NCBI GenBank assembly: GCA_021792255.1
Contig: JAJYUZ010000001.1
Location: 352,001 to 416,000 of the forward strand
Source: Thermoplasmata archaeon
GTDB lineage: Archaea; Thermoplasmatota; Thermoplasmata; Thermoplasmatales; GCA-001856825
Length of the DNA stretch: 64,000 bases
Direction: 5' to 3'
In this document: positions 1,450-29,463 of the stretch, one piece after another
Layout of the letters: the number at the start of each line of letters is the position of its first letter
Numbering within the stretch: the first letter of the stretch is position 1
Position numbers and translations under genes: made by a program
The notes under the pieces: generated by a model
The model's database searches: none
What the model saw: the letters and a program-made list of their open reading frames with translations, nothing else
What the model was told of the DNA's origin: nothing

Positions 1450-1713
1450 GTACATAGCCTACAGGTGACACGGTGGTGCTGAGATCATTGAAAGCGTTGA
1501 CGTAGCAGACAGGTTCATGGAGGCAGGGCGGCCCTCGTAAATGTTCCTGCACCTCCTGTTTCTGGATATCCTGAGAGATGTGCACGTTTATCATTTATTA
1601 ATCTATAATTCTTTCAATTCTGCATAATATGTAGGTCTAATTCCTCCATTATCTTCCTTGATTTCTTTAATTCCTTTTAGGCAAAAATTAGGGATTCAAT
1701 TACGTTTCACAAG

Positions 1714-1788
1714 CGGGCCCGCGGGGATTTGAACCCCGGATCATTGGCTTAGAAGGCCAATGCCTTATCCAGACTAGGCCACGGGCCC
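1714..1788 (-). tRNA. tRNA-Arg(TCT)
   Basis: Reverse complement is GGGCCCGTGGCCTAGTCTGGATAAGGCATTGGCCTTCTAAGCCAATGATCCGGGGTTCAAATCCCCGCGGGCCCG: full cloverleaf, anticodon TCT, no encoded CCA. Confidence 0.96.
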
Positions 1789-2562: not shown

Positions 2563-2857
2563 GGTAGTCCCAGGATGGCCGTCGCCAGATATGGTGAGGA
2601 AAGTCCTCCCTCCGGGTAGCAATCTGGATAAAACCCTGGTCGAGAGACCAGCTCTTCCTCAAAAGAAATGACACAGTTTCGGTCAAGGGTGAACCTTTAG
2701 AAGGGGACGTTCCCGAAAACTTGATGAGACAGAGGGGGTGAGATAGGAGCAAGCTCAAGCAGTTCTCATGACAGCTATCAGAGGAACAGGTAGAGCGCAA
2801 TAGTCAAATGCCATCAACCCGAAAGGGCTAACAGAAGGAGGCTTACTCGGGACAACC
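2563..2857 (+). ncRNA. rnpB: RNase P RNA (archaeal)
   Basis: Universal P4 halves GAGGAAAGTCC and AACAGAAGGAGGCTTA. Ends GGTAGTCCCAG and CTCGGGACAACC form P1. About 295 nt. Confidence 0.93.
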
Positions 2858-11278: not shown

Positions 11279-11495
11279 AACCAAACTGAAGGTTAAAGGA
11301 AAAGAAGCAGAAATCATCATTCGAGCGGTACTTGAGGATCACAAGAAGTATATGAATTGCAGGAAGACAAAGGAGGGATACCTCTGCACCATTAGGGGTC
11401 AAACCAATGATGTCCGGAAGACGCTCAATGAATTTCTAGAATCCATCTTATACCTGGAGAGAGTGTCAGAAAGCCTCGAAGCCCGAGTGGGGTAG
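11268..11495 (+). CDS. Putative KEOPS subunit Pcc1-like protein (75 aa, non-canonical start; absent from the ORF track)
   Basis: Open frame LEIETKLKVKGKEAEIIIRAVLED...VRKTLNEFLESILYLERV fits the Pcc1 beta-alpha-beta-beta-alpha pattern. CTG 11268 lies 9 nt after GGAG. The stop falls inside the tRNA. Confidence 0.5.
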   Translation: MEIETKLKVKGKEAEIIIRAVLEDHKKYMNCRKTKEGYLCTIRGQTNDVRKTLNEFLESILYLERVSESLEARVG

Positions 11496-11555
11496 TTTGG
11501 ATTATCCTAGAGGCCTGCGGAGCCTCAGACCTGGGTTCGAATCCCAGCTCGGGCG
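11481..11555 (+). tRNA. tRNA-Arg(GCG)
   Basis: GCCCGAG...CTCGGGC acceptor stem, GAGGC-CTGCGGA-GCCTC anticodon arm and GGTTCGAATCC T-loop. Confidence 0.96.
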
Positions 11556-11619
11556 TCTTTCTAGAGCGGTCTGACGGGTCGGTTTACGACAAAAACTAAA
11601 ATACAATTTACAGATAGCA

Positions 11620-12636
11620 TTGAGCAAGATGTCTTTGAGTACAGGGCACGATAAGGTCGCGACAAGATTTTCCTTTTCTGGAAGACTTAAAAGAAATGCT
11701 TCTTTCAAGGTCGGAGTTGTCATAATTGGAATCTATCTGGTCATTTCTTTGTTAGACGTCGCTTACCCGAAATACATTAACGTGAGCAATGCATTTAATT
11801 TGTTTGCCTTTACTAACCCTGGACTTAAATCCGTTGTGCTGACACAACCATCTCCCCCAACACTCAACCATGGCTGGATGTACATATTTGGAACCACAGC
11901 TTATGAGATTCCCATACTTCCCGCTATCCTTGCGTCGATACCGATCGACCTCGGGTATGCTGTACTGATAGCTGGAGTGAGCGCGGTCATAGGCACGCTG
12001 ATCGGAGTAACTGGCGCATTCTTTTCAAGGGAATCAGAATGGCTGATATCGGTCATTTCAAACGCATTTATCAGTTTTCCACTCATCATCTCAGTCGTGA
12101 TTTTCGGCTTTTTGTTTCACTTCACAATACTCTCAATTTTTGCAGGAATAGTAGTGGTACTGTGGGCATATTATGCTCAAATAACTCGGATGCTCACGCT
12201 CAATGTGAAGGCGAAGCAATTTATCGAGGCAGCACGGGCCTCAGGAGCGTCTGACTTGCGCATAGTCTACTCGCACATCGTTCCGAACATAACTACGCCA
12301 ATTCTCATAAGGCTCTCTCTCGACATGGCTACTGTGGTCTTGATCTTCTCGGCTGCAAACTTCATGTTCTGGGCGCAGTTTTTGCCTCTCGCAACGATAC
12401 CAGAACTGGGCAGCCTCATCAATGGATTCCCAGAATTTGGATATCAATTTGGGTATCCAATAGGAGGACCAGTAATGGGGGGGGGCCATTACATTCCTGC
12501 CACTGCTGCCGTATTTCTATATCTGGGATACTGGTGGACCGTCTTGTTTCCCATCTTGTTCTTGTTGGTCCTAGTCATAGGTCTAATAGCACTTTCGGAT
12601 GGCCTTAGAAAAGCTATGGATCCAAGAACCACATAG
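11620..12636 (+). CDS. DppC/OppC-like peptide ABC permease
   Basis: EAARASGASDLRIVYSHIVPN, PELG and DGLRKAMDPR. Confidence 0.88.
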   Translation: MSKMSLSTGHDKVATRFSFSGRLKRNASFKVGVVIIGIYLVISLLDVAYPKYINVSNAFNLFAFTNPGLKSVVLTQPSPPTLNHGWMYIFGTTAYEIPILPAILASIPIDLGYAVLIAGVSAVIGTLIGVTGAFFSRESEWLISVISNAFISFPLIISVVIFGFLFHFTILSIFAGIVVVLWAYYAQITRMLTLNVKAKQFIEAARASGASDLRIVYSHIVPNITTPILIRLSLDMATVVLIFSAANFMFWAQFLPLATIPELGSLINGFPEFGYQFGYPIGGPVMGGGHYIPATAAVFLYLGYWWTVLFPILFLLVLVIGLIALSDGLRKAMDPRTT

Positions 12637-12663
12637 TGCGATGCTGTATATCCCAGAACAATG

Positions 12664-13737
12664 TCAAGTCCGTACGAGCGGATTCTTCGCATAATGGATT
12701 GTGTCTATTGTGATTGCACCGAAGATCAAGATTAGCCCAAGGAGAAATATTGTGACTGCCGTTGGGTAGTACTGACCGTGAGCCATGGTCGTGATGAGAA
12801 ACAGTCCTATCCCAGGATAATCGAACACGTACTCCATCATGACTATGTTGCTGAGTAGAAAGGCTACCATGATGGTCGCAGAAGCCATCACAGGCATTAC
12901 AGCGTTGGGCCTGACGTGCTTTATTTCGATTTGTCTCTCTGGTACGCCGCGACTTCTCGCGCTCCTCACATATTCCGTGCCCATGTTGTCGGTGTAACCG
13001 GCTTCCAAGAGGGAAGTGACGATCGCGGTAATACCAATTACTAACGTTGTGACTGGAAGTACGAGGTGCATAAATGCATTGGCTGCAAGGGTATAATCGC
13101 CGTGTATAAGAGAATCGAACAGGAGCATGTGCGTAGGGCTGGATATCAGCACTCCATTACTCTCCAACCATGCTGGTTTTGGTACTCCTGACGGAAGTGC
13201 GATCGGATTAAACGCGCCAGTAATAGGAAAGACCGCAAGCGGGTTTCCGCTTATCACTCCCTTTCCCAACAGAACCTGGAGAAGCAGACCTACCACGTAA
13301 GCGGGAGTTAGGTAGCCTACGATGACTGCTGACCTTCCGAACTTTGCGAGTCTGTAAGTATGATGTGTGCCGAGGTACCTTCCCAACGGGAACGAGATTA
13401 TCAATGCAATCGGAGCTGCGATGATCACTACTTCAAGAGTAGAAAAGAGATAAATGTCTATAAGCATCGTAAGTGGGCCGCTGTAAGTAGCTTCGGTTCC
13501 TGCTGTGAGATAGCCCCAGTGTCCAATCAAGATATCTACTACGAATATTCCGAAAGCAGTTAGATAAGAAGTAATTGAGTCCGAAAAGGCTGGAAAACCT
13601 GACGAAATAGGACTACCATTTCCTATAAACGAAAACACTACAAATATGAAATAGAGGATGATCAAGATTGTCGGTGGAACCGATGCAAGTCTTTTGAGAA
13701 AGTACGACCACATGCTCATCTTAGACTGTACGACCAA
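12664..13737 (-). CDS. DppB/OppB-like peptide ABC permease
   Basis: YFLKRL, HLVLPVTTL, YVRSARSRGV and EYVFDYPGIG. Convergent with dppC. Confidence 0.88.
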   Translation of the reverse strand: MVVQSKMSMWSYFLKRLASVPPTILIILYFIFVVFSFIGNGSPISSGFPAFSDSITSYLTAFGIFVVDILIGHWGYLTAGTEATYSGPLTMLIDIYLFSTLEVVIIAAPIALIISFPLGRYLGTHHTYRLAKFGRSAVIVGYLTPAYVVGLLLQVLLGKGVISGNPLAVFPITGAFNPIALPSGVPKPAWLESNGVLISSPTHMLLFDSLIHGDYTLAANAFMHLVLPVTTLVIGITAIVTSLLEAGYTDNMGTEYVRSARSRGVPERQIEIKHVRPNAVMPVMASATIMVAFLLSNIVMMEYVFDYPGIGLFLITTMAHGQYYPTAVTIFLLGLILIFGAITIDTIHYAKNPLVRT

Positions 13738-13804
13738 GGTAGAATCGCATAAAGATTTTTTGCCCAGGCAGAAGCAGTACAGACATTGTCATTTCCATGA
13801 TGAC

Positions 13805-14419
13805 TCAGGCCGTCATTGTCAAGATTTCATCGTGGACTAATGCGCTTGGATTCGAAATAGCGATGTGATAGACGTCCATAGCGAACGCGAACTGCCCCGA
13901 GTATCCTGCCACGATAAGCACCATCGAACCAGCACCAGAATTGTTACCAAAAGTACCACCCAATACGATGGCAGTGTACCGGAAATTATTAAATGATTCG
14001 TTCGTCACGGCAACGGAGAACCCTACTCCTTGCTGGTAACCCTGCAGATCTATCATTGCATTTTCGTAGATCTGCGCTACGAACGAAGATGCAGAGGACT
14101 GCGATAAGAATTCGAATGAACCCATTATGAGTTCGCCGTAACCTGATGACCTAACGAAGGATGCAGCTATTGCTTTGATGGGTTTCTCCGAAGACTGACT
14201 GGAAAAGATACTGCTCGTTGCGGGTATCTCGTTTAACCCTACTCCAGATGTATTGTTGACTTGTGAATCGCTGACTATCCCGATGTGGAGAGTAGATAAA
14301 GGATGTAGTGAACCGTTATGACTTTCGATAATTTCAAAGGGAACGAATATTAAAACAGCAACTACTATCACGACTGCGACTCCGGTCACTACGGCACGGA
14401 TTTGTCCGTCAGCATTCAT
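13805..14419 (-). CDS. Membrane-anchored extracellular hypothetical protein
   Basis: Single N-terminal TM helix followed by a Ser/Gly-rich domain. Upstream of dppB. Confidence 0.6.
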   Translation of the reverse strand: MNADGQIRAVVTGVAVVIVVAVLIFVPFEIIESHNGSLHPLSTLHIGIVSDSQVNNTSGVGLNEIPATSSIFSSQSSEKPIKAIAASFVRSSGYGELIMGSFEFLSQSSASSFVAQIYENAMIDLQGYQQGVGFSVAVTNESFNNFRYTAIVLGGTFGNNSGAGSMVLIVAGYSGQFAFAMDVYHIAISNPSALVHDEILTMTA

Positions 14420-14800
14420 AGGTTTATGAAATTAACAAAGAGTAAAAAGATTTCGCAGAGCTTGTTCGCTGGACGAATTCTTGCCATGTTCCAATTTTGC
14501 CTGTAATCCATTAAGATCTAACAAGCAAGTCTGAGGCCCATAATTGTAAGAAATCCATCTAGAGAAATCTAGAGGATTCAGATAGGCACCCTACCCCGAA
14601 TTAGAGTCCACTAAAGAGTAACAAGATAGCATTTAATTAGTCTCAGTTTACGGTCAGGTTGAAAGAAAGGAGAATTACCAAACGATTGGCACAAAGAATA
14701 GGCATCTATACTCACGAAAAACTGGGGTATTGTTGACCGCCGCGGTACTTGGATAAAGTCCTTCGAAATTTACTCAACCTTTGAAACGAGAAGTATTTTT

Positions 14801-15763
14801 TCATCGGCTATGTGATATCACTATAGTATCTCCCCTCAACGCATTTTCAAACTCGGTCTCGAAGATAATGTGCCCTGGATCGTTTCCCGTCCTCTTGATG
14901 ATCACTGGCTCGATTTCCCTAAACCCATCTGACAATCTCTTCTTGATTTTGACATCTTCCCCCTTTTCGAATTCACAGTTTATTCTCAGAAGATCTACGT
15001 CCGAAGGAATCACAATTTGAATTGGCCTGTTCGGAAAATTATATCTATAATTCAAGAACAAGTATCTCTCTTCTGATTTACGCATCGGCCTGTTAAGTGT
15101 AATAGAAATACCTGTTCTATCTGACCCGGAATACAAAACGTTTTCCTCATGTAGTGTGATTTTCTTAGTTTCGTCGAATGCAGATAAGTTTATCTGATTA
15201 AGCGAGTTCAAATCTCCCATAGGTAGAGAAATATTATATCCTGCAATTATGCCTAGACCGAAATTCTTAATGTGAACGAACATTGTAACAAATGTCTCAT
15301 CATGCGTGAAGTCAAATCCGATTGACATACTTGTCGTCTTAATTTCTTGTCCCGATGGACTCCCTGTTTTCTTACCATACAGTACAGTTCCATTCACTGT
15401 CCTTTTGCTCATCAAGTCAAGTTTAAGTAATTTTTTGATATTCCTATAGACGGTAGCTGTTACAACAGGTCTTCCGTATGAATTTTCAAGTAGCGACTTG
15501 ATTTCACCAAATCTCAATTCTTTTTCGCGCAACCGTAAGGAGACAATCTCTTCTAGGGCGTTAAATAATGATCCCTTTGGGGCTTGAGTAATAGAGCTTC
15601 GACTAACTCCATCGCCAGGTTGTCTACAGTAGTGCACTATTCCATTTGCGTGGACGAATTTCAAATAGTGGTATTTTTTTCCTTTAGAGCTAGACGTATA
15701 GTTGATCTTTCTCGCTTGACCACCACAAGCTTGACAGACTTCTAGCACCGCTTTCCTTCCCAT
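14801..15763 (-). CDS. Putative regulator B1: Zn-ribbon + winged HTH + beta-sandwich
   Basis: CQAC...KGKKYHY..VHANGIVHY, Fur-like TATVYRNIKKL and a beta-rich C-terminus. Paralogue of 26487-27419. Confidence 0.75.
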   Translation of the reverse strand: MGRKAVLEVCQACGGQARKINYTSSSKGKKYHYLKFVHANGIVHYCRQPGDGVSRSSITQAPKGSLFNALEEIVSLRLREKELRFGEIKSLLENSYGRPVVTATVYRNIKKLLKLDLMSKRTVNGTVLYGKKTGSPSGQEIKTTSMSIGFDFTHDETFVTMFVHIKNFGLGIIAGYNISLPMGDLNSLNQINLSAFDETKKITLHEENVLYSGSDRTGISITLNRPMRKSEERYLFLNYRYNFPNRPIQIVIPSDVDLLRINCEFEKGEDVKIKKRLSDGFREIEPVIIKRTGNDPGHIIFETEFENALRGDTIVISHSR

Positions 15764-15824: not shown

Positions 15825-16781
15825 TCAGGAGTGCTTCCATTTGAATTGCAGGACAGAAAATGGCTCGACGTCGGAGATTCTGATACCACTGATGTGTTTC
15901 CACATGGGAGAAGAAGCTTCCATACTGTTATTCGATAACTCTCTGGTTTCATTCCTAGATGCCAGGGTCAAGGATGCACTGAGCTTAATGTCATTATCCC
16001 CAGAAATTGAAAATTGAAAATTGTCCATCCTGGTCGCAGCGGAAAAAACGAATGACATTTTTGGTTCCGGCCACTTATATTCTACCTTAATGTCTCTTAG
16101 TTCTCCGGGGAGGAGCGGGATAGGCATTTTCAAAAGTACTCTCTTGTCCGTGGGAGAATCTTCAATCAGCAGTACTTTAAAATCTTTGGAATTGGAAGGA
16201 TCTGTAGCGTGCAATTCTATATCTTCGAACCTCATATCCACATCTCCTACGTATCTGAATGGAACGTAATAAAGTGGCCAAGAGTGGTCATTTTTGATTA
16301 TGTAAGTGAATACGTGTTTCTTGAATGTATAGTCTTTATCAATGTCCACCAGTCCGATTTTCAGTGAGTTGATTACGAAACTCAAACGATCTTTTGATAC
16401 CGTGTTTATGTAATAGAGACTCCTTCCTCTCTTATGCTTTTCAATCATTCCAATTTTTGCTAGTCTTTCCAAACTGACCTTGATTGAACCAAACCCGATA
16501 TCGGAGAAGTTTTTGACAAGTAGTTTTTTGATATCCTTGTTCCTAAACGTGCCAAGTTTGAAATCTTGAGAGTTAATAGTCTCTATAAGGACCCTCTCAA
16601 GTTCTCCTTTCTTTATGTACTTCTGACCTTTTTGATCCTGGTTTGAATAATGAATGGCTCCTTCGTGATGATAAATGAAGTAATCATAACGCTTGCCATA
16701 TTTGTTCATCACCCATTTACGGGTTACCCTCGCTCGCTCACCGCATACAGGGCAAACCTCCTGACGCTCGCCAAAGGTCAT
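15825..16781 (-). CDS. Putative regulator A1: Zn-ribbon + winged HTH + beta-sandwich
   Basis: CPVC...NKYGKRYDY..YHHEGAIHY and wHTH SLERLAKIGMIEKHKRGR. Paralogue of 25471-26427. ATG 16781 aligns with the paralogue start. Confidence 0.78.
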   Translation of the reverse strand: MTFGERQEVCPVCGERARVTRKWVMNKYGKRYDYFIYHHEGAIHYSNQDQKGQKYIKKGELERVLIETINSQDFKLGTFRNKDIKKLLVKNFSDIGFGSIKVSLERLAKIGMIEKHKRGRSLYYINTVSKDRLSFVINSLKIGLVDIDKDYTFKKHVFTYIIKNDHSWPLYYVPFRYVGDVDMRFEDIELHATDPSNSKDFKVLLIEDSPTDKRVLLKMPIPLLPGELRDIKVEYKWPEPKMSFVFSAATRMDNFQFSISGDNDIKLSASLTLASRNETRELSNNSMEASSPMWKHISGIRISDVEPFSVLQFKWKHS

Positions 16782-16807: not shown

Positions 16808-16819
16808 AAAGTTAGAAAA
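16808..16819 (-). promoter_or_regulatory. Operator half-site TTTTCTAACTTT abutting the TATA-like box of regulator A1
   Basis: Exact copy of one arm of the 16986-17010 palindrome. The core ends 28 nt before the ATG, as in copy 2. Confidence 0.6.
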
Positions 16820-16841: not shown

Positions 16842-16937
16842 TTACGCTCCGCCCACGTAGGCTCCACCTAGTGGTCTTACGATTGCGAAGTACGTACTAA
16901 CCACAAGAGCGAGCACCGCTACAATTAGCTCAAACAT
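16842..16937 (-). CDS. Short hydrophobic peptide P1 (MFELIVAVLALVVSTYFAIVRPLGGAYVGGA)
   Basis: SD-like GGGGGAT before the ATG. Ungapped similarity to the peptide at 25312-25413 in the same position of the second module. Confidence 0.7.
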   Translation of the reverse strand: MFELIVAVLALVVSTYFAIVRPLGGAYVGGA

Positions 16938-16985
16938 TTGAATCCCCCATTGTTCTATAATATACTGGTATTTCGATACTACTGC

Positions 16986-17010
16986 AAAGTTAGAAAAGTT
17001 TTCTAACTTT
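16986..17010. promoter_or_regulatory. Perfect palindromic operator AAAGTTAGAAAA-G-TTTTCTAACTTT
   Basis: 12-bp inverted repeat with a 1-nt spacer, 48 nt upstream of the P1 start. Confidence 0.7.
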
Positions 17011-17055: not shown

Positions 17056-17240
17056 ATGGAATCTAAAGCGTTAGGTACTGTCAGGGTGATGCGAATTAGC
17101 TCTGTACGGCACCGATCAGAATCGCGAGACGGACAGATTGAGTCAAAAGACGGAGAAATAAGACTGCGGCAGAGTAGCGGGCGCCCTTCGAGGAACCAAT
17201 CCCCCTCCTCGTGTGTGGAGCTAGTTCTCACCGACAGCCT
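17056..17240 (+). other. Divergent structured element (candidate ncRNA or leader), overlapping a weak 139-aa ORF
   Basis: Long-range stem: 17078-17102 pairs with 17218-17237. Preceded by the conserved TATTGAATA box. Confidence 0.35.
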
Positions 17241-17464
17241 TTATTCTCCTAGCTTTCTAGACGTAACAGACGAATTAGAACTTCTAGAGATCGTACGCTC
17301 GGAAGGTATGTACACTCTCGGTTTAGCCGATAAAAAGTGGATAAAATCTAAACCTAACTCTGCGGTCGCTTATAATTCAATGCGTAGAGCAAAGTTCATT
17401 TTAAATCTTGACCCCTCAATTTGGTTCAGTTACGGGACCTTTTCGATTGGAACTGATGTGGAGG

Positions 17465-17890
17465 ATGCCTGAATTGTCTCTAGGCGAGCTGGATTTTGAG
17501 AATGGTAGTGTCCTTAGAGAACAGAAAGATATCAAAGAGAGAGTAAAGGATGACACAAAGCTTCTGGTCTCTTTGCATGATATTGAATTTTCAAAAGAGA
17601 AAGAGGGATATTTAGAGGTAGCTACCGACATTTTCTTCTCGAGACTCCTTCATCTCCTTTATGTACGCAACGTAGAAGCTGGAAAGGATTTCGAAACAGC
17701 GAAAGAGAAAGCAAAGACAGTCCTCATCTCTCAGTTGGAGAAAAAGAAACAAACCCTCCTGACAAAGTCAGTATTTCAGAATGACAGCGCTAAAGATTAT
17801 GGCATGAGAGGGAAGAGATTGTTTCTGCTGAACAAAGCCATCTCGATACTTGAGGCTTACAACGGTGAACCGCCATATTTCAATTACTGA
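17465..17890 (+). CDS. Hypothetical protein (about 141 aa, helical and charged)
   Basis: GGAGG directly before ATG 17465 and coding-like composition. Confidence 0.6.
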   Translation: MPELSLGELDFENGSVLREQKDIKERVKDDTKLLVSLHDIEFSKEKEGYLEVATDIFFSRLLHLLYVRNVEAGKDFETAKEKAKTVLISQLEKKKQTLLTKSVFQNDSAKDYGMRGKRLFLLNKAISILEAYNGEPPYFNY

Positions 17891-23807: not shown

Positions 23808-24362
23808 TCAGGTCAGCGAGGCCACAATTGAACCAGTCGTACCTGAATAATTAATTACTACTTTAAAGTCCGATAATACTATTGCTTTTCCGGTCGAATG
23901 GAAAACTATGAAAATTATGGCCCCAGATTCTATGGAAGATGCGCCATTAAGTGGGACAGCTCCATTAGCCGTCCACACATCACCGCTGCTCGTAAAAGTG
24001 TTCATGTAAAGTGCTGATCCGTCTGGATTTGTGATTGTCGCATTCTCAATCGTCCAGCCGACCCCTGTTGAGGTCGTGTTCAAAATTTGCAGATGAAAAT
24101 TGGATGGATCCTTAAGAGATGTCGGAGAAGCAAGCGTCAACAGTAGTGTAGTCGAATTTGGTCCAGAAGGTTCTTCCGTCAGGCTTCCCACTAGTGGTCC
24201 AGGCCCGGGAGTATAGTATGAAACCAGCAGATATACAGCAGCAGCTAAAACTACTGTGACTGCCACCATCAGGATAGTTGCTATTACTGGAGATACCGCC
24301 TCGTCTTTTTCAACGTGAAGTGACCAAATCTTCCTGCGAGTTCTCCTAATGACTTCTTTCAT
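23808..24362 (-). CDS. Archaeal type IV pilin-like protein
   Basis: Class III signal KDEA|VSPVIATILMVAVTVVLAAAVY. Confidence 0.88.
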   Translation of the reverse strand: MKEVIRRTRRKIWSLHVEKDEAVSPVIATILMVAVTVVLAAAVYLLVSYYTPGPGPLVGSLTEEPSGPNSTTLLLTLASPTSLKDPSNFHLQILNTTSTGVGWTIENATITNPDGSALYMNTFTSSGDVWTANGAVPLNGASSIESGAIIFIVFHSTGKAIVLSDFKVVINYSGTTGSIVASLT

Positions 24363-25086
24363 CTCTTCCCCCTGGTGAACCAAGAGCGAAAAGAAATGCC
24401 TAAACCCAATATATATTTTGAGGTTCTCTCTATTCCTGAATTAGTTGAATTTATGGATTAAATCGTGCTGCCAAATACTCTGCCGGCTATGATAAACATA
24501 TCTTGACCTTTCCATATTGATATCTATTTTTGATCTTCCTTATAAAAATGACTTTCTGTTTTCTAGTGGTGGTAAGAAAGCGCACCAAACTCGTAAGAGG
24601 GAAGGAAATCAAATACTTTTTATATATCTTGAGGAGCCCGTAGAATCCTCTATCGTATAAAGGCCTTGATCTCATTAAATTCTAATAGCGAACTATGCTT
24701 TTCCTCACGATTTACTTGACTCCGAGATTGACATCAACTTTTTCTTGCTCATGCTAAAACTGATTTTGAAAACTATGTCAGATCACCCGAGGTATACAAA
24801 GATATTTTACTAATAGTTCTCAAACCTTTGCCTGCTTTCGGAAGAATGGAATTGACTATAAAATTAGTGTAATCAACATTTCTCAGACATGTTTTCTTTT
24901 TTATATTTTTAAAATGACGAAAATGTAACTTAGATCATTTCTCTTTTAAATCGGACATTTTTTGTTTTAAATAGTTTCAGTCCTCCGGTCATTATTTTCA
25001 TTATGGAAATTCAGCTAGACCGGATCGTGTTGAAGAGCGCTTGACTCTTATTCTCGGTAAATCCTCACAACTTCCACTCAAGAAAA

Positions 25087-25237: not shown

Positions 25238-25262
25238 AAAGTTAGAAATGTTAGCTAACTTC
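25238..25262. promoter_or_regulatory. Degenerate copy of the operator: AAAGTTAGAAAT-G-TTAGCTAACTTC
   Basis: 21 of 25 positions identical to 16986-17010 on the + strand. Lies 49 nt upstream of the P2 start. Confidence 0.68.
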
Positions 25263-25311
25263 CTGTTAGTATAAAAATACGAGAATAAGTTGATTTTTTG
25301 AGGGATACGAA

Positions 25312-25413
25312 ATGTTCGTAATATTTGCCTTCGTGATTGGCCTGGCTATAACCGTGTACTACACTTTAATTAACCCACAGGGCAATGGCGGAATAGCGGC
25401 GGGTGGCGGATAG
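25312..25413 (+). CDS. Short hydrophobic peptide P2 (MFVIFAFVIGLAITVYYTLINPQGNGGIAAGGG); absent from the ORF track
   Basis: SD-like GAGGGAT. Homologous to P1 in position and sequence. Confidence 0.7.
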   Translation: MFVIFAFVIGLAITVYYTLINPQGNGGIAAGGG

Positions 25414-25432: not shown

Positions 25433-25442
25433 TTTTCTAACT
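25433..25442 (+). promoter_or_regulatory. Operator half-site TTTTCTAACT before the TATA-like box of regulator A2
   Basis: Ends 28 nt upstream of ATG 25471, the same spacing as copy 1. Confidence 0.55.
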
Positions 25443-25470: not shown

Positions 25471-26427
25471 ATGTCAAATTTAAAAGAAGAAGGAGTTTGT
25501 CCATACTGTAAGAAAAAATCTTACATTACAAGAAAATGGGTTCTAAACAAGTACAAGAAAAGATACAATTATGCTATATATCATCACGACGGAACCTTGC
25601 ATTACTTGAATGAATCTAAAGATAATTCAAAAACCTTCAGGAAGGGAGAAATTGAGAAATTATTGATTGAAACGATAAACTCTGAAAGATTCAAAGATGG
25701 TTTGTTTCTAACTGAAGACATAAAGAAGTTACTTGAGAAGGAATATCCTGAAATTCAATCAGATACTATCAGAGCAAACCTCTATCAATTGACGAAAATA
25801 GGAATGCTTGAAACTATGAAAAAGGGGAGACAGGTCTTCTTCCTTAACGTGGTTTTCAGGGAAAGACTGGGCTATATTTTCGATTCAGTCAAGATATTAC
25901 TCGGAGATATTGAGGGCGATACTTTCTTCAGAAATCACGTTGCCCTTTATCAAATCAGAAATGACAAAACGTGGCCACTTTACTTCCTTCCTTATCGAGT
26001 TTTCGGAGATGCTGACGCCGAGTTTAGAACGATGCAATTTCGGGCGTTTGATATATCAAATAACGAGCGATTGAGAGTACTCTTATTAGAAGACAATCCC
26101 AGGGAAAAGAGAGTACTGCTTCGATTGAGTAATCCTCTGTTCCCAAACGAAATATTGAAAGTCAGATTTGAGTACGATTGGCAGGAGCCTAAACAAGCTT
26201 TTGTCTTCACTGCTGCAACTCAATTAAAGAGCTTCGAGATTTATCTCTCTGGCAACAATCAACTTAAGATACAGGCGATTCAGACCGTATCGACCACCAA
26301 TGAAATTAAAGATCTCACCAATGACGTTTCAAAAAGTAGGAACAAAGAATGGGACTTCGTGTATTCGATAAAGTTGAAATCGATCAAACCCTTTTCAGTA
26401 ATACAATTAAAGTGGAAACGCATTTAA
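25471..26427 (+). CDS. Putative regulator A2: Zn-ribbon + wHTH + beta-sandwich
   Basis: CPYC..RKWVLNKYKKRYNYAIYHHDGTLHY, WPLYFLPYR and PFSVIQLKWK are shared with A1. Confidence 0.78.
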   Translation: MSNLKEEGVCPYCKKKSYITRKWVLNKYKKRYNYAIYHHDGTLHYLNESKDNSKTFRKGEIEKLLIETINSERFKDGLFLTEDIKKLLEKEYPEIQSDTIRANLYQLTKIGMLETMKKGRQVFFLNVVFRERLGYIFDSVKILLGDIEGDTFFRNHVALYQIRNDKTWPLYFLPYRVFGDADAEFRTMQFRAFDISNNERLRVLLLEDNPREKRVLLRLSNPLFPNEILKVRFEYDWQEPKQAFVFTAATQLKSFEIYLSGNNQLKIQAIQTVSTTNEIKDLTNDVSKSRNKEWDFVYSIKLKSIKPFSVIQLKWKRI

Positions 26428-26486: not shown

Positions 26487-27419
26487 ATGCCTAGGAAACC
26501 GTTGCAGGCAATGTGTAAAATTTGTGGAGCAAACGCAACACTTGTGCATCACCAGGCCACTGGAGCTAACGGAATAATTTATTTTTATGAGAAGTACGTC
26601 CACCGAAATGGCAAGACTCATTATTTTCGACAAGACAGAAAAGCACAAAGTGAAGAAGCTTCCGTTTCTTTTGAAGACTTGATTGATACGAAGATGAACA
26701 ATGGCAAGTACAGGTTCAAAGAAATCAAACTCCTAATTGAATCTGTCAATCGGAGAAACGTTAGCAACACTATGGTCTACAGGAGTATTGAAAAGGCAAT
26801 ACGGGCCAATTCAATAGAGAAGAATATTGAGGAAGGCATAATCTATTATTCGAAAAGAATCAACCAAGATTCATCAGGACAACTGAAAATAAAGGAAGCG
26901 TTTGTAACTTATGTTCTATCAGACTCTACCGTGAATATGACAATACTGTTACTGTTCGAGAATCTTAGCGGTTTGCTTATGAACAGAATACCAATCACCC
27001 TCCCTACAGGGACTGTAGATTCTCAAAAAGAGCTGCACCTTCAAGTATTCGATCAGATGGGACCAATTCCGGAAAAGAATGTAGAAATGGCATATTCATT
27101 CTCTAGTCAGACCGGAATTGCGATAAACTTTAACAAACCCCTAAAACCGAATGAGTTCAATTTCGTCTTTATGAGCACTCAATTCAAGACAAGAGAGCGA
27201 ATGTTGAAATTTGCTTTGCCACTGTACACCAATTCTCTGAAACTGTACGTCACATTAGATCACGGCAAACCAGTTCACATAATAAAACGCCTGCTCGATG
27301 GAGTCAAGGAGACAAATCCGGATTTGGCCAGAAAGGGGACATTGAATAACGGTCAGACTTACAAGGAAGTGGAGTTCAATAATGCGTCCTGGGGAGAGGC
27401 GATAATAGTCTCTTGGTGA
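26487..27419 (+). CDS. Putative regulator B2: Zn-ribbon + wHTH + beta-sandwich
   Basis: CKIC...VHRNGKTHY, RFKEIKLLIE..TMVYRSI, KRLLDGVKE and EFNNA.GEAIIVS are shared with B1. Confidence 0.75.
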   Translation: MPRKPLQAMCKICGANATLVHHQATGANGIIYFYEKYVHRNGKTHYFRQDRKAQSEEASVSFEDLIDTKMNNGKYRFKEIKLLIESVNRRNVSNTMVYRSIEKAIRANSIEKNIEEGIIYYSKRINQDSSGQLKIKEAFVTYVLSDSTVNMTILLLFENLSGLLMNRIPITLPTGTVDSQKELHLQVFDQMGPIPEKNVEMAYSFSSQTGIAINFNKPLKPNEFNFVFMSTQFKTRERMLKFALPLYTNSLKLYVTLDHGKPVHIIKRLLDGVKETNPDLARKGTLNNGQTYKEVEFNNASWGEAIIVSW

Positions 27420-27673: not shown

Positions 27674-27970
27674 ATGGTAATTGAGTGGACCACCATAATG
27701 GATTTCGTCCTTACGTTCGTGGCAGGATTGCTCTTCGGTCTAGCTATCAAGAAGGGAGTTGTCGCGTTTGTGCTAGCAATAGTAGGCTTCGTGATAGCGG
27801 GATATGTAGGGTTGACGTTTGTTCCCAAGATTTCATTAAGCTACGAGATAAGTAAATTCATTGCTCTTGCACTGGCATACTTCAAGGACGCGCAAATTGG
27901 AACGCTTGCCGTTTCTCTCACAGTTATTCTGTTCCTTATCGGACTTGTCATAGGACTGTGGAAAGGATAA
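27674..27970 (+). CDS. Small membrane protein (FUN14-like)
   Basis: GLLFGLAIKKG..LAIVG..GYVG pattern with three hydrophobic segments. Confidence 0.6.
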   Translation: MVIEWTTIMDFVLTFVAGLLFGLAIKKGVVAFVLAIVGFVIAGYVGLTFVPKISLSYEISKFIALALAYFKDAQIGTLAVSLTVILFLIGLVIGLWKG

Positions 27971-28093
27971 TCTTAAAACGACCTGTAGGTGCAGATTCTT
28001 GACTATTGATTTTTTCTATCTTTCCTATTGAGTCATCGGACCGTTTTATCAGCAGCATCTGAAGAAGCGTAAAGGTTGATAAGGCCGAAATAT

Positions 28094-28669
28094 ATGCTTT
28101 TTAGATTGAGTAAGATAAAGAACGAAGAGGCCGTTTCGGAAGTCGTCGGGACTATCCTTATACTAGCTATAACGGTAGTGCTATTTGCAACAGTATTTGT
28201 CTATGTACAACAAGTTCCACTGGCTACGGCCCCTGAACAAGTCACTATCTACCAAGAGATATCCTACGACGCAAATTCTCACGTCCTCTATGAGAATCTT
28301 TCTGATAAAGGAGGGAGCATTCTTCTTAGAAGCGAGACCTATCTGATCGTACTCGTTAACAATGTAGAATATTCGAGCGTTCTGACTTCACTTCAAGTAA
28401 GCGATCCCTATGGAAATGCTTCAAAATATTTTGAACCGGGCGATTCTATTCTCTGGAACAGTTCTTCCATTGGAGCCAAAGTATCGAATGGCTCAAAAAT
28501 CAACTCCATTTTGTTCTATAAATCCACAAACCAAGTACTGTGGCAATCCGAGAACGACCTGCCGGTACAATATTTGCTGACGGACCTTTTCGCTCTTCAG
28601 GGTTCCCAAGGAACTGGAAACGAGACAATATTCCACCATTTACTTTCTGCAAAACACTGGCAGATGTGA
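28094..28669 (+). CDS. Archaeal type IV pilin-like protein
   Basis: KNEEA|VSEVVGTILILAITVVLFATVF, FEPGD and NQVLW. Confidence 0.82.
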   Translation: MLFRLSKIKNEEAVSEVVGTILILAITVVLFATVFVYVQQVPLATAPEQVTIYQEISYDANSHVLYENLSDKGGSILLRSETYLIVLVNNVEYSSVLTSLQVSDPYGNASKYFEPGDSILWNSSSIGAKVSNGSKINSILFYKSTNQVLWQSENDLPVQYLLTDLFALQGSQGTGNETIFHHLLSAKHWQM

Positions 28670-28884: not shown

Positions 28885-29463
28885 GTGATAGCCGAGCTTG
28901 AAATCTTAGGGATTATCGGAACAGTTTATGTTCTCGGTGTTTTTGTGCTGTCTGTTTTGAACTTCTCCAACATAGTGAGAAGACAGTTCTTAAAAGCCTC
29001 GGCCCTATTCTTTATATTCTCTCTGATATCGATGATACTAGTCATCGTGGTAAGTTACAACACTGCATTCTTTCTTCCTCTCGTGACAGCAGAGTTTCTG
29101 CTCATGATGACTCTGTTCTATAGCTATCTGAAGTCGAACGTCTATTTTTTGTCTGCACTTGCATTAGCACCGAGCCCTTGGACGAGACTGAACCCGTATT
29201 TTGAAGACGTTGTTGTCATTCTCTCCATCTACTTCTCTCTCTACATTACTGGATCGATTCTGCAGGCTAAATCTCAAGAAAGAAAGGGGAGCACTCTAGT
29301 GATGGGATCATTCATAATGATGGATATATCTCTGGTTGTAGAAGCGTTTTACATTCTGAGTTTCAACAGTTCTTTCATGCAGATCGGTGTTTCGCTGTTC
29401 GTCATCTCCATTGTGTTGTTTCTCCTTCCATTTCTGATTGGGGGCCTATCAAAGAATGCGTAA
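28885..29463 (+). CDS. Polytopic membrane protein, function unknown
   Basis: About six to seven TM segments. Directly upstream of the wHTH gene. Confidence 0.65.
   Translation: MIAELEILGIIGTVYVLGVFVLSVLNFSNIVRRQFLKASALFFIFSLISMILVIVVSYNTAFFLPLVTAEFLLMMTLFYSYLKSNVYFLSALALAPSPWTRLNPYFEDVVVILSIYFSLYITGSILQAKSQERKGSTLVMGSFIMMDISLVVEAFYILSFNSSFMQIGVSLFVISIVLFLLPFLIGGLSKNA

Follow-up and report, generated by a model that had tools for sequence, protein, structure and literature searches.

The window analyzed here, a 64-kb stretch of contig C3 of an archaeal genome (1.59 Mb, 44% G+C), contains two copies of a gene cassette in which a very short hydrophobic open reading frame (ORF), P, is followed by two paralogous genes, A and B, encoding predicted DNA-binding proteins. 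The genus takes in the 'I-plasma' bin from acid mine drainage, and the relatives compared throughout belong to the I-plasma group of Thermoplasmatales. The genes of the two cassettes and the Shine-Dalgarno (SD)-like sites of the peptide ORFs are listed below, with coordinates of the window.

16845-16937 (stop 16842-16844), minus strand: P1, type-1 micropeptide, 31 codons and a stop
16942-16948, minus strand: SD-like site GGGGGAT, 4 nt 5' of the P1 ATG
15825-16781, minus strand: A1, 318 amino acids (aa), predicted C2H2 zinc ribbon, winged helix-turn-helix and beta-sandwich
14801-15763, minus strand: B1, 320 aa, paralogue of A1 with the same predicted three-domain layout
25312-25410 (to 25413 with the stop), plus strand: P2, type-2 micropeptide, 33 codons and a stop
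25300-25306, plus strand: SD-like site GAGGGAT, 5 nt 5' of the P2 ATG
25471-26427, plus strand: A2, paralogue of A1 (45% identity, E 3e-111)
26487-27419, plus strand: B2, paralogue of B1 (27% identity over the full length, E 9e-45)

P1 and P2 each lie 54-57 nt upstream of their A-B pair. The P1 peptide is composed of a conserved MFE[LI]I start, a hydrophobic stretch of approximately 17-20 residues, a basic residue in position 21 and an LGG-x3-GG[AG] tail; P2 has an LINP turn and a GG[IV][AS][AQE]GGG tail. A six-frame scan of the whole 1.59-Mb genome for a methionine, a hydrophobic stretch, a proline and a Gly/Ala-rich end returned P1 and P2 only. The Pfam scan at E <= 1 assigned no family to P1 and only PF11044 to P2 (E 0.15), and neither peptide has anything above noise in Pfam, PADLOC or PHROGs. 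A longer in-frame ORF of 129 aa, starting from the GTG at 17231, was rejected as the P1 gene: it is open in this genome only and reads through a conserved palindrome (see below), and at this position the relatives have stops, or extensions of only 57 codons.

The initial annotation had described P1 as a hidden peptide homologous to P2, and most of what it read from the letters has been borne out. Both quoted translations are present exactly in the window, the ungapped comparison gives the same identical residues (M1, F2, V8, L11, Y16, P22 and G24, with an aromatic residue in position 17 of both), and its G(G/A)GGGAT sites are those listed above. The proposed homology of the two peptides is supported by the family alignment, by the presence of the ORF in 28 of 33 loci, and by the paralogy of the downstream genes. 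The family alignment upholds as well the description of one hydrophobic helix followed by a Gly-rich tail.

The set of loci comprised all those with an A homologue and upstream DNA (33; L016, at a contig end, was excluded), and in each the most hydrophobic ATG-started ORF of 20-45 codons was selected by a script from the 300 nt 5' of A. As the loci come from related genomes, they are not independent. A hydrophobic ORF of 28-33 codons, 37-70 nt 5' of the A open frame, was found in the 28 loci just mentioned, so that conservation in related genomes, on which the initial annotation had made its reading depend, has been observed. A G-rich SD-like site lies shortly before the ATG of each of these 28 ORFs (and of all 29 among those listed). 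The P1 orthologous loci have 31 codons in ten cases and 30 codons in two, and P2 has 33 codons in every type-2 locus carrying the peptide. Across 11 aligned type-1 loci the columns of the SD-like site holding its core GGG and the A after it are invariant, and related G-rich sites are present in the P2 orthologues. The mean Kyte-Doolittle hydropathy of residues 1-20 is 1.8-2.8 for the ORFs of the family. Among the five misses, L018 has a 12-codon ORF only, L020 has a candidate ORF farther upstream, and at L017 the script took another ORF, with a 36-codon candidate starting 134 nt upstream; the remaining two are considered below.

A check suggested there, the ratio of nonsynonymous to synonymous substitution rates (dN/dS, pooled Nei-Gojobori estimates) across homologous loci, gave 0.28 for type 1 (10 distinct coding sequences; differences in the first, second and third codon positions 418/251/649) and 0.20 for type 2 (9 coding sequences; 418/244/708). 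Third codon positions are the most variable in both types. For residues 1-5, 6-20 and 21 to the end, the pairwise identity among type-1 peptides is 0.80/0.55/0.56, and among type-2 peptides 0.59/0.41/0.63. Conservation is higher at the two ends of the peptide than in the helix, and both ends are under purifying selection.

Three types of cassettes are distinguished, each with its specific peptide, and up to three paralogous cassettes occur per genome. The type-1 pattern is MFE[LI]I at the start and [RKH][PS]LGG-x3-G[GSN][GA] at the end, the type-2 pattern is M[IVF]EI[FL] and LINP-x3-GG[IV][AS][AQE]GGG, and peptides of further types end in YMGGIIVGGR, SLGN or GSGSFGN(G). In the family alignment a gap of two residues brings the type-1 and type-2 tails together on GG-x3-G-[GSN]-[GA], and the only invariant columns are M1 and one Gly of the tail. 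The tails are conserved inside each type and different between the paralogous types, and the 'variable tail' of the initial annotation does not hold as stated, since types 1 and 2 both keep this motif. The length of the ORF, its hydrophobic profile and its Gly-rich end are kept across cassette types without detectable nucleotide similarity; the length, the SD-like site and the position 5' of A are kept even in cassettes whose A is only 27-32% identical to that of the window.

A profile made of 26 peptides and compared with 1.84 billion representative proteins yielded 16 matches, all of 30-57 aa and of the same pattern, none being longer; relatives have therefore already been called by automatic gene callers (16 cluster representatives). 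Within the same family, 19 of the 24 other genomes yielded homologues of A; in the 35 genomes of six other families of the order none was found. The pattern of codon positions, the dN/dS values and the result of the profile search argue that the ORFs are coding and that the family is small and clade-restricted. By these comparative measures, both ORFs are genuine genes that encode members of a new microprotein family, with 28-33 residues per peptide and restricted to this clade.

Proteins A and B are predicted to be regulators of an unusual kind. By BLASTP, A1 and B1 are 28.6% identical over about 150 N-terminal residues (E 8e-8), and in the AlphaFold2 models (mean predicted local distance difference test score 78.7 for A1 and 80.8 for B1) the secondary-structure elements of B1 follow in the same order. 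The zinc ribbon has four invariant residues, C10, C13, H39 and H44 in A, and C10, C13, H38 and H44 in B. Residues 57-130 of the A1 model resemble the winged helices of Fur, PerR and MecI (Z 8.6-10.2, root-mean-square deviation (rmsd) 1.7-3.1 A over 64-70 residues), so that a winged helix-turn-helix domain of the Fur/MecI/PadR-like fold, as in winged-helix transcription regulators, is predicted for A1. Residues 133-318 form a beta-sandwich of about 185 residues, similar to the N-domain of M1 aminopeptidases and to ribophorin I; Z is 13-14, and some 160 residues superimpose with an rmsd of about 3 A at 5-12% identity. The likeness to ribophorin/OST was rejected as a clue to function, being a shared beta-sandwich fold only at this level of identity.

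No curated family scores above noise for A or B in Pfam, NCBIfam, PADLOC or PHROGs. The A/B-type winged helix has a weak match to Penicillinase_R (E 0.0035, below the Pfam cut-off), the best PADLOC match is that of A2 to AbiEi, restricted to the winged helix and not significant (E 6e-4), the search of PDB sequences with the A profile returned winged-helix matches at E 0.09-0.3 only, and the search of the ESM Atlas returned nothing but the unnamed cluster of the queried protein itself. The named homologues all come from Thermoplasmata metagenome bins and are all 'hypothetical protein', except for one BlaI/MecI/CopY-family regulator. In these models A and B are shown as paralogous, predicted DNA-binding proteins comprised of a zinc ribbon, a winged helix and a beta-sandwich, and this regulator architecture is unusual and previously undescribed.

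Two observations on A homologues may be added here. The matches G007:C71, G002:C21, G014:C40, G004:C22 and G009:C23 have one in-frame stop each (TAG, TAA or TGA). A 2-kb contig (L048) with an A homologue of 64% identity is binned as 'uncultured Gammaproteobacteria', which is probably a binning error and not gene transfer.

The promoter regions of both peptide genes contain the same palindrome, and one of its arms recurs at the promoters of the A genes:

16988-17008: palindrome AGTTAG-N9-CTAACT, centre 60.5 nt 5' of the P1 ATG, with the conserved promoter block TATCGAAATA just downstream
25240-25260: second exact copy of AGTTAG-N9-CTAACT, centre 61.5 nt 5' of the P2 ATG, with the box TATAAAAATA after it
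16810-16818, minus strand: half-site TTTCTAACT, abutting the TATA box TTTTTTATAC of the A1 promoter
25434-25442, plus strand: half-site TTTCTAACT, adjoining the TATA-like box of the A2 promoter

With zero mismatches, AGTTAG-N9-CTAACT occurs twice in the 1.59-Mb genome, both times at P promoters. With at most one mismatch and a spacer of 5-10 nt, the palindrome is present in 21 of 29 loci, centred 58-62.5 nt 5' of the P ATG. At L009 both arms carry the same change (AGTTCG and CGAACT), and the arm change of L009 is seen again at L011, read from upstream sequence outside the type-1 promoter alignment. The arms are constant, and the spacer varies both in sequence and in length, which fits the site of a dimeric protein better than a hairpin. 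The P2 promoter block is the best-conserved DNA of a 930-nt intergenic region, being 76-90% identical in the relatives. In archaeal promoters activator sites are usually located upstream of the TATA-like block, and the palindrome, standing just upstream of such a conserved block, would occupy this usual position.

The half-site TTTCTAACT lies against the TATA box of the A promoter, between the stop of P and the start of A, and TCTAAC is found at -32 from the start of the A open frame in 9 of 12 type-1 loci. As A has its own TATA box and half-site there, it probably has its own transcript, likely a leaderless one. The genome contains 23 copies of TTTCTAACT (20 expected), seven of them inside an 18-kb region around the two cassettes, between window positions 16810 and 28775. 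The gene at 28885-29463, considered as a member of the regulon due to an upstream TTTCTAACT, was rejected: there is no TTCTAAC box 5' of its homologue in five relatives, and only the inverse GTTAGAA is found upstream in one of the five. On present evidence from motif searches the circuit appears to be closed, with P and A-B as its recognizable targets.

Upstream of cassette 1 three further features have been identified, of which the first is a candidate structured RNA:

17147-17254, minus strand: putative structured RNA, about 100 nt folded into one long hairpin whose apical AGGGGGAT is invariant; flanked by the P1 promoter and the divergent gene
17321-17353: palindrome GTTTAG-N21-CTAAAC, 5' of the divergent gene, enclosing A/T-rich TATA-like boxes
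17408-17890, plus strand: divergent conserved gene of about 145-160 aa (start uncertain)

The apical AGGGGGAT of the hairpin contains the SD motif of P1. The hairpin comprises 27 pairs, compensatory changes are seen at 13 pairs, and 85.6% of the cells are paired; none of 500 shuffles attained such values, and slid controls give 47-56% paired; the G-U pairs favour the P-sense strand. A covariance model of the hairpin, R1, has one match per genome in 10 of 25 genomes (70-109 bits in the sense and 24-33 bits in the antisense orientation), nine of the ten having been in the training alignment. The matches adjoin cassette 1 wherever its coordinates are known, and none is located at cassettes of types 2 or 3. 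No Rfam family is assigned to 17147-17254 at the gathering score. The product of the divergent gene is 46-53% identical and syntenic in the relatives; it has no match in Pfam, NCBIfam or PADLOC, and only matches at E 0.019 and 0.056 in PHROGs. Both arms of its palindrome are found at a fixed distance in five of six relatives, and one arm in the sixth.

The other neighbours of the cassettes are the following:

11481-11555: tRNA-Arg(gcg), beside the permease segment (window 11481-14800)
11620-12636, plus strand: OppC-like permease, convergent with the OppB-like gene
12664-13737, minus strand: OppB-like permease, convergent with the OppC-like gene
13805-14419, minus strand: 204-aa protein with an N-terminal hydrophobic stretch, adjoining B1
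23808-24383, minus strand: Pilin_N protein, flanking cassette 2
27674-27970, plus strand: 98-aa membrane protein, flanking cassette 2
28076-28669, plus strand: Pilin_N protein, flanking cassette 2

The conserved unit is P-A-B; apart from A and B, the peptide has no invariant neighbour. In five other genomes synteny extends over both divergent cassettes, which stand 8-10 kb from each other, and over the intervening genes; cassettes of the third type are found in unrelated contexts. The arrangement of the two Pilin_N proteins and the 98-aa membrane protein around cassette 2 is kept within the genus. By cassette 1, the segment 11620-14419 is absent from the corresponding place in the six other genomes with DNA downstream of B1, and since the relatives are without it, it may have been inserted at the tRNA gene. 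An ABC-2-type transporter three genes off is syntenic within the genus but has no link to cassettes of other types. The IMG/VR viral contigs yielded no relative of A. From the gene order the P-A-B module looks like a chromosomal, vertically inherited one, and not like a mobile or defence-island element. Elsewhere in the window two ordinary RNA genes were noted, an archaeal RNase P RNA at 2563-2857 (plus strand, 158 bits) and a tRNA-Arg(tct) gene at 1713-1788 (minus strand).

That P is a real membrane micropeptide gene functionally tied to A and B is, in our opinion, very probable. As to its role, we favour a membrane-resident partner of A and B, regulated by them and in turn tethering or modulating them, though taken as a whole this statement is tentative and somewhat less than evenly balanced. 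The regulators would bind AGTTAG-N9-CTAACT as a dimer, upstream of the transcription factor B recognition element (BRE) and TATA box, thus controlling transcription of P, and might autoregulate through the half-site at their own promoter. P would be a single-pass peptide with the acidic N-terminus outside and the Gly-rich tail in the cytoplasm, since residue 3 is acidic and in most types a basic residue directly follows the helix (the positive-inside rule). The tail differs between the cassette types, hence it may be what is recognized by the beta-sandwich domain of the cognate A and B, whose beta-sandwiches seem to be the only plausible co-evolving partners for a cytoplasmic tail. P could in this way feed the state of the membrane back to its own regulators as a tether or modulator and, as far as motif searches indicate, would also be the main output of the circuit. 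A related suggestion of the initial annotation was a KdpF-like regulatory microprotein of the membrane; its KdpF part found no support (that family is not matched by the peptides, nor a P-type ATPase family by the scanned proteins near the cassettes), and its second part is the reading favoured here.

Several observations weigh against this interpretation. In cassette 2 of two genomes (L025 in G009 and L026 in G012) the hydrophobic ORF is gone, and A2, B2 and most of the palindrome are kept; instead there is a non-hydrophobic ORF of 55 codons, alike in both genomes and overlapping the start of A2. Hence A and B can persist without the peptide. In 8 of 9 type-2 peptides Asn or Gln follows the helix, which leaves the topology argument weak for this type, and in type 1 there are 17 residues between E3 and R21, which is short for spanning a tetraether membrane. 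As types 1 and 2 have the same operator arms and spacing, cassettes 1 and 2 are not insulated at the DNA level, so far as their operators tell. The prediction of an A1, B1 and P1 complex, which gave 0.00 for P1 as a partner in two runs with no control complexes folded, speaks neither for nor against it. The contacts of A and B with the palindrome and with P are predicted ones, as are transcription, start sites and translation of the P genes, and no RNA runs are on record among those with this DNA.

The first of the alternatives, which we regard as unlikely, is that P is a membrane-active effector or toxin under the control of A and B, comparable to a type I toxin, to a holin or to an effector of abortive infection or stress, which when induced would permeabilize or depolarize the membrane and might be restrained by an antisense RNA or by the upstream hairpin. 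Size and hydrophobicity of P are as in type I toxins, characterized as 'small hydrophobic' proteins in two papers (PMC6563280, PMC2887945). The closed circuit with P as its only clear target fits this role too, and the GxxxG-type tail could drive oligomerization. The conserved RNA candidate by cassette 1, with an apical loop repeating the SD motif of P1, speaks for this role, but it is encoded on the same strand as P1, does not overlap it, and is not found at cassettes of types 2 or 3. Moreover, the module is syntenic and vertical rather than patchy or island-borne, PADLOC gives no significant match, and the tail is Gly-rich, neutral and uncharged.

According to the second alternative, P is the precursor of a signalling peptide and functions in the manner of Rgg/SHP or another RRNPP system. 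After export and cleavage of P, a fragment would build up outside, return into the cell and bind to the beta-sandwich of A and B, and these would activate the P promoter through the palindrome, giving positive feedback. The regulators of RRNPP systems combine an N-terminal XRE-type helix-turn-helix (HTH) with a peptide-binding domain of TPR-like helical repeats. The layout agrees with SHP/Rgg, in that a hydrophobic peptide gene adjoins the genes of predicted DNA-binding proteins and a predicted operator of its own precedes the TATA box of the peptide promoter. A genome can hold as many as three paralogous cassettes with different peptide tails, which resembles the several shp/rgg copies of some streptococci (PMC3679016), and the tails GGIIVGGR (L015, L030) and GGAFMGSG (type 1) are loosely similar to the IIVGG ends given for SHP2 and SHP3 in PMC3257209.

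The receptors do not agree: A and B are not RRNPP-like, having a beta-sandwich as the sensor domain in place of an XRE-type HTH with TPR-like repeats, and no TPR/Rgg family is matched by A1, A2, B1 or B2 in Pfam, nor by A1 or B1 in NCBIfam. Neither does the pro-peptide. According to PMC3257209, SHP2 and SHP3 begin with MKK and have a Lys-rich N-terminus, but the polarity of P is opposite: type-1 and type-2 peptides start mostly with M-[FIV]-[ED] (M-F-E in P1 and P2), have neither Lys nor Arg before the helix, carry the basic residue after it, and have a tail predicted to be cytoplasmic, so that a positive N-terminus with a hydrophobic C-terminal part is not found in them. Residues 1-5, the most conserved in type 1, would not be expected to be so in a discarded leader. 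The Opp/Dpp/Nik-type permeases, considered as a route of re-import, were rejected, their adjacency not being conserved in the six genomes mentioned above; no protease or exporter travels with the third-type cassettes, and the synteny comparison of the relatives revealed no genes for export, processing or re-import conserved with the module. We consider this alternative decidedly unlikely. Its more specific form, that P-A-B is the first archaeal cassette for cell-to-cell peptide signalling, built of parts unrelated to RRNPP, with a Gly-rich fragment sensed via the beta-sandwich, the regulator turning on the peptide promoter through AGTTAG-N9-CTAACT and two or three coexisting 'channels' per genome, is more doubtful still. 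The pheromone precursor of the initial annotation is thus possible but not favoured: its layout, with adjacent genes of DNA-binding type and a palindrome of its own, stands, and its argument from a conserved helix with a variable tail fails, since the ends are the more conserved parts.

Very improbable is the third alternative, that P serves as a small subunit, or in the assembly, of some membrane structure with no relation to A and B, for instance one of the type IV pilin-like neighbours, and stands next to A and B only on account of shared regulation. Pilin_N genes do flank cassette 2, in a neighbourhood conserved within the genus, but cassette 1 and the third-type cassettes of the relatives keep the peptide without a nearby homologue of the pilin-like genes of the window, and the sole invariant neighbours of the peptide are A and B. 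The initial annotation had also thought of a mimic of the pilin N-terminal helix, which found no support, as Pilin_N matches three neighbouring genes and neither P1 nor P2, and the peptides have no charged leader with a Gly cleavage site. Finally, that the P ORF is non-functional, a by-product of conserved regulatory DNA or an upstream ORF with an irrelevant peptide sequence, is extremely improbable: the ORF is very short and the promoter DNA around it is itself highly conserved, but the most variable third positions with dN/dS of 0.2-0.3 are not expected of conserved regulatory DNA, length, hydrophobic profile and Gly-rich end persist between cassette types without nucleotide similarity, and translation of P is not needed as a leader, because A has a TATA box between the stop of P and its own start.

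Returning to P as a membrane-resident partner of its regulators, the comparative data alone give a well-supported new family with a defined promoter, an operator and two dedicated regulators. In archaeal genomes, proteins shorter than about 50 residues usually go undetected, and for very few of them is a partner known; the P ORFs and their third-type relatives merit inclusion in gene calls and in proteomics databases for acid-mine-drainage communities. If the peptide tethers or modulates its own regulators, the cassette would be a compact signalling circuit from membrane to DNA, in hosts that are wall-less or S-layer acidophiles living near pH 1. If instead the peptide is secreted and acts as a signal, this would raise the question whether Archaea communicate by peptides; among the records and excerpts returned by a literature search, no paper was found on the P-A-B module or on peptide signalling in archaea.

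Compared with known systems, P-A-B shares with SHP/Rgg (PMC3257209, PMC3679016) a very hydrophobic peptide, encoded by some 22-33 codons next to the gene of a cytoplasmic DNA-binding protein, as well as peptide ends rich in Gly and Ile/Val, a dedicated peptide operator and several paralogous pairs per genome. It differs in its regulators, predicted to consist of a zinc ribbon, a winged helix and a beta-sandwich, with two paralogues per peptide, in the opposite polarity of the peptide, in having no conserved exporter, protease or oligopeptide permease linked to it, and in the archaeal host. Type I toxins such as Hok, TisB, Fst and Ibs resemble P as small hydrophobic single helices encoded by tightly controlled genes (PMC6563280 and PMC2887945); unlike type I toxin-antitoxin pairs, P-A-B has two protein regulators, vertical syntenic inheritance and an uncharged Gly-rich tail. 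Archaeal type IV pilins (Pilin_N, PF07790) have a hydrophobic N-terminal helix as P does, and pilin genes lie near cassette 2, but P starts with M-F-E and has neither a charged leader with a Gly/Ala cleavage site nor a globular domain.

KdpF (Pfam PF09604, approximately 29 residues) is similar to P in length and in its single hydrophobic helix. P does not match the KdpF model, its downstream genes are A and B and not kdpABC, and no P-type ATPase (KdpB-type) family is matched among the scanned proteins near the cassettes. Bacterial membrane microproteins that modulate or tether regulators include MgrB, acting with PhoQ, and Prli42, acting with the stressosome; proteins of this kind have about 30-50 residues, one transmembrane helix, a short tail on a signalling protein, and a gene controlled by their own system. 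P has no sequence relationship to them, and its proposed partners are soluble winged-helix proteins instead of histidine kinases or the stressosome; the likeness, by analogy only, is in the size, the single helix, and the proposed contact of the tail with feedback. P-A-B represents a new family of a type already known in general, in which a small membrane protein is coupled to regulators.

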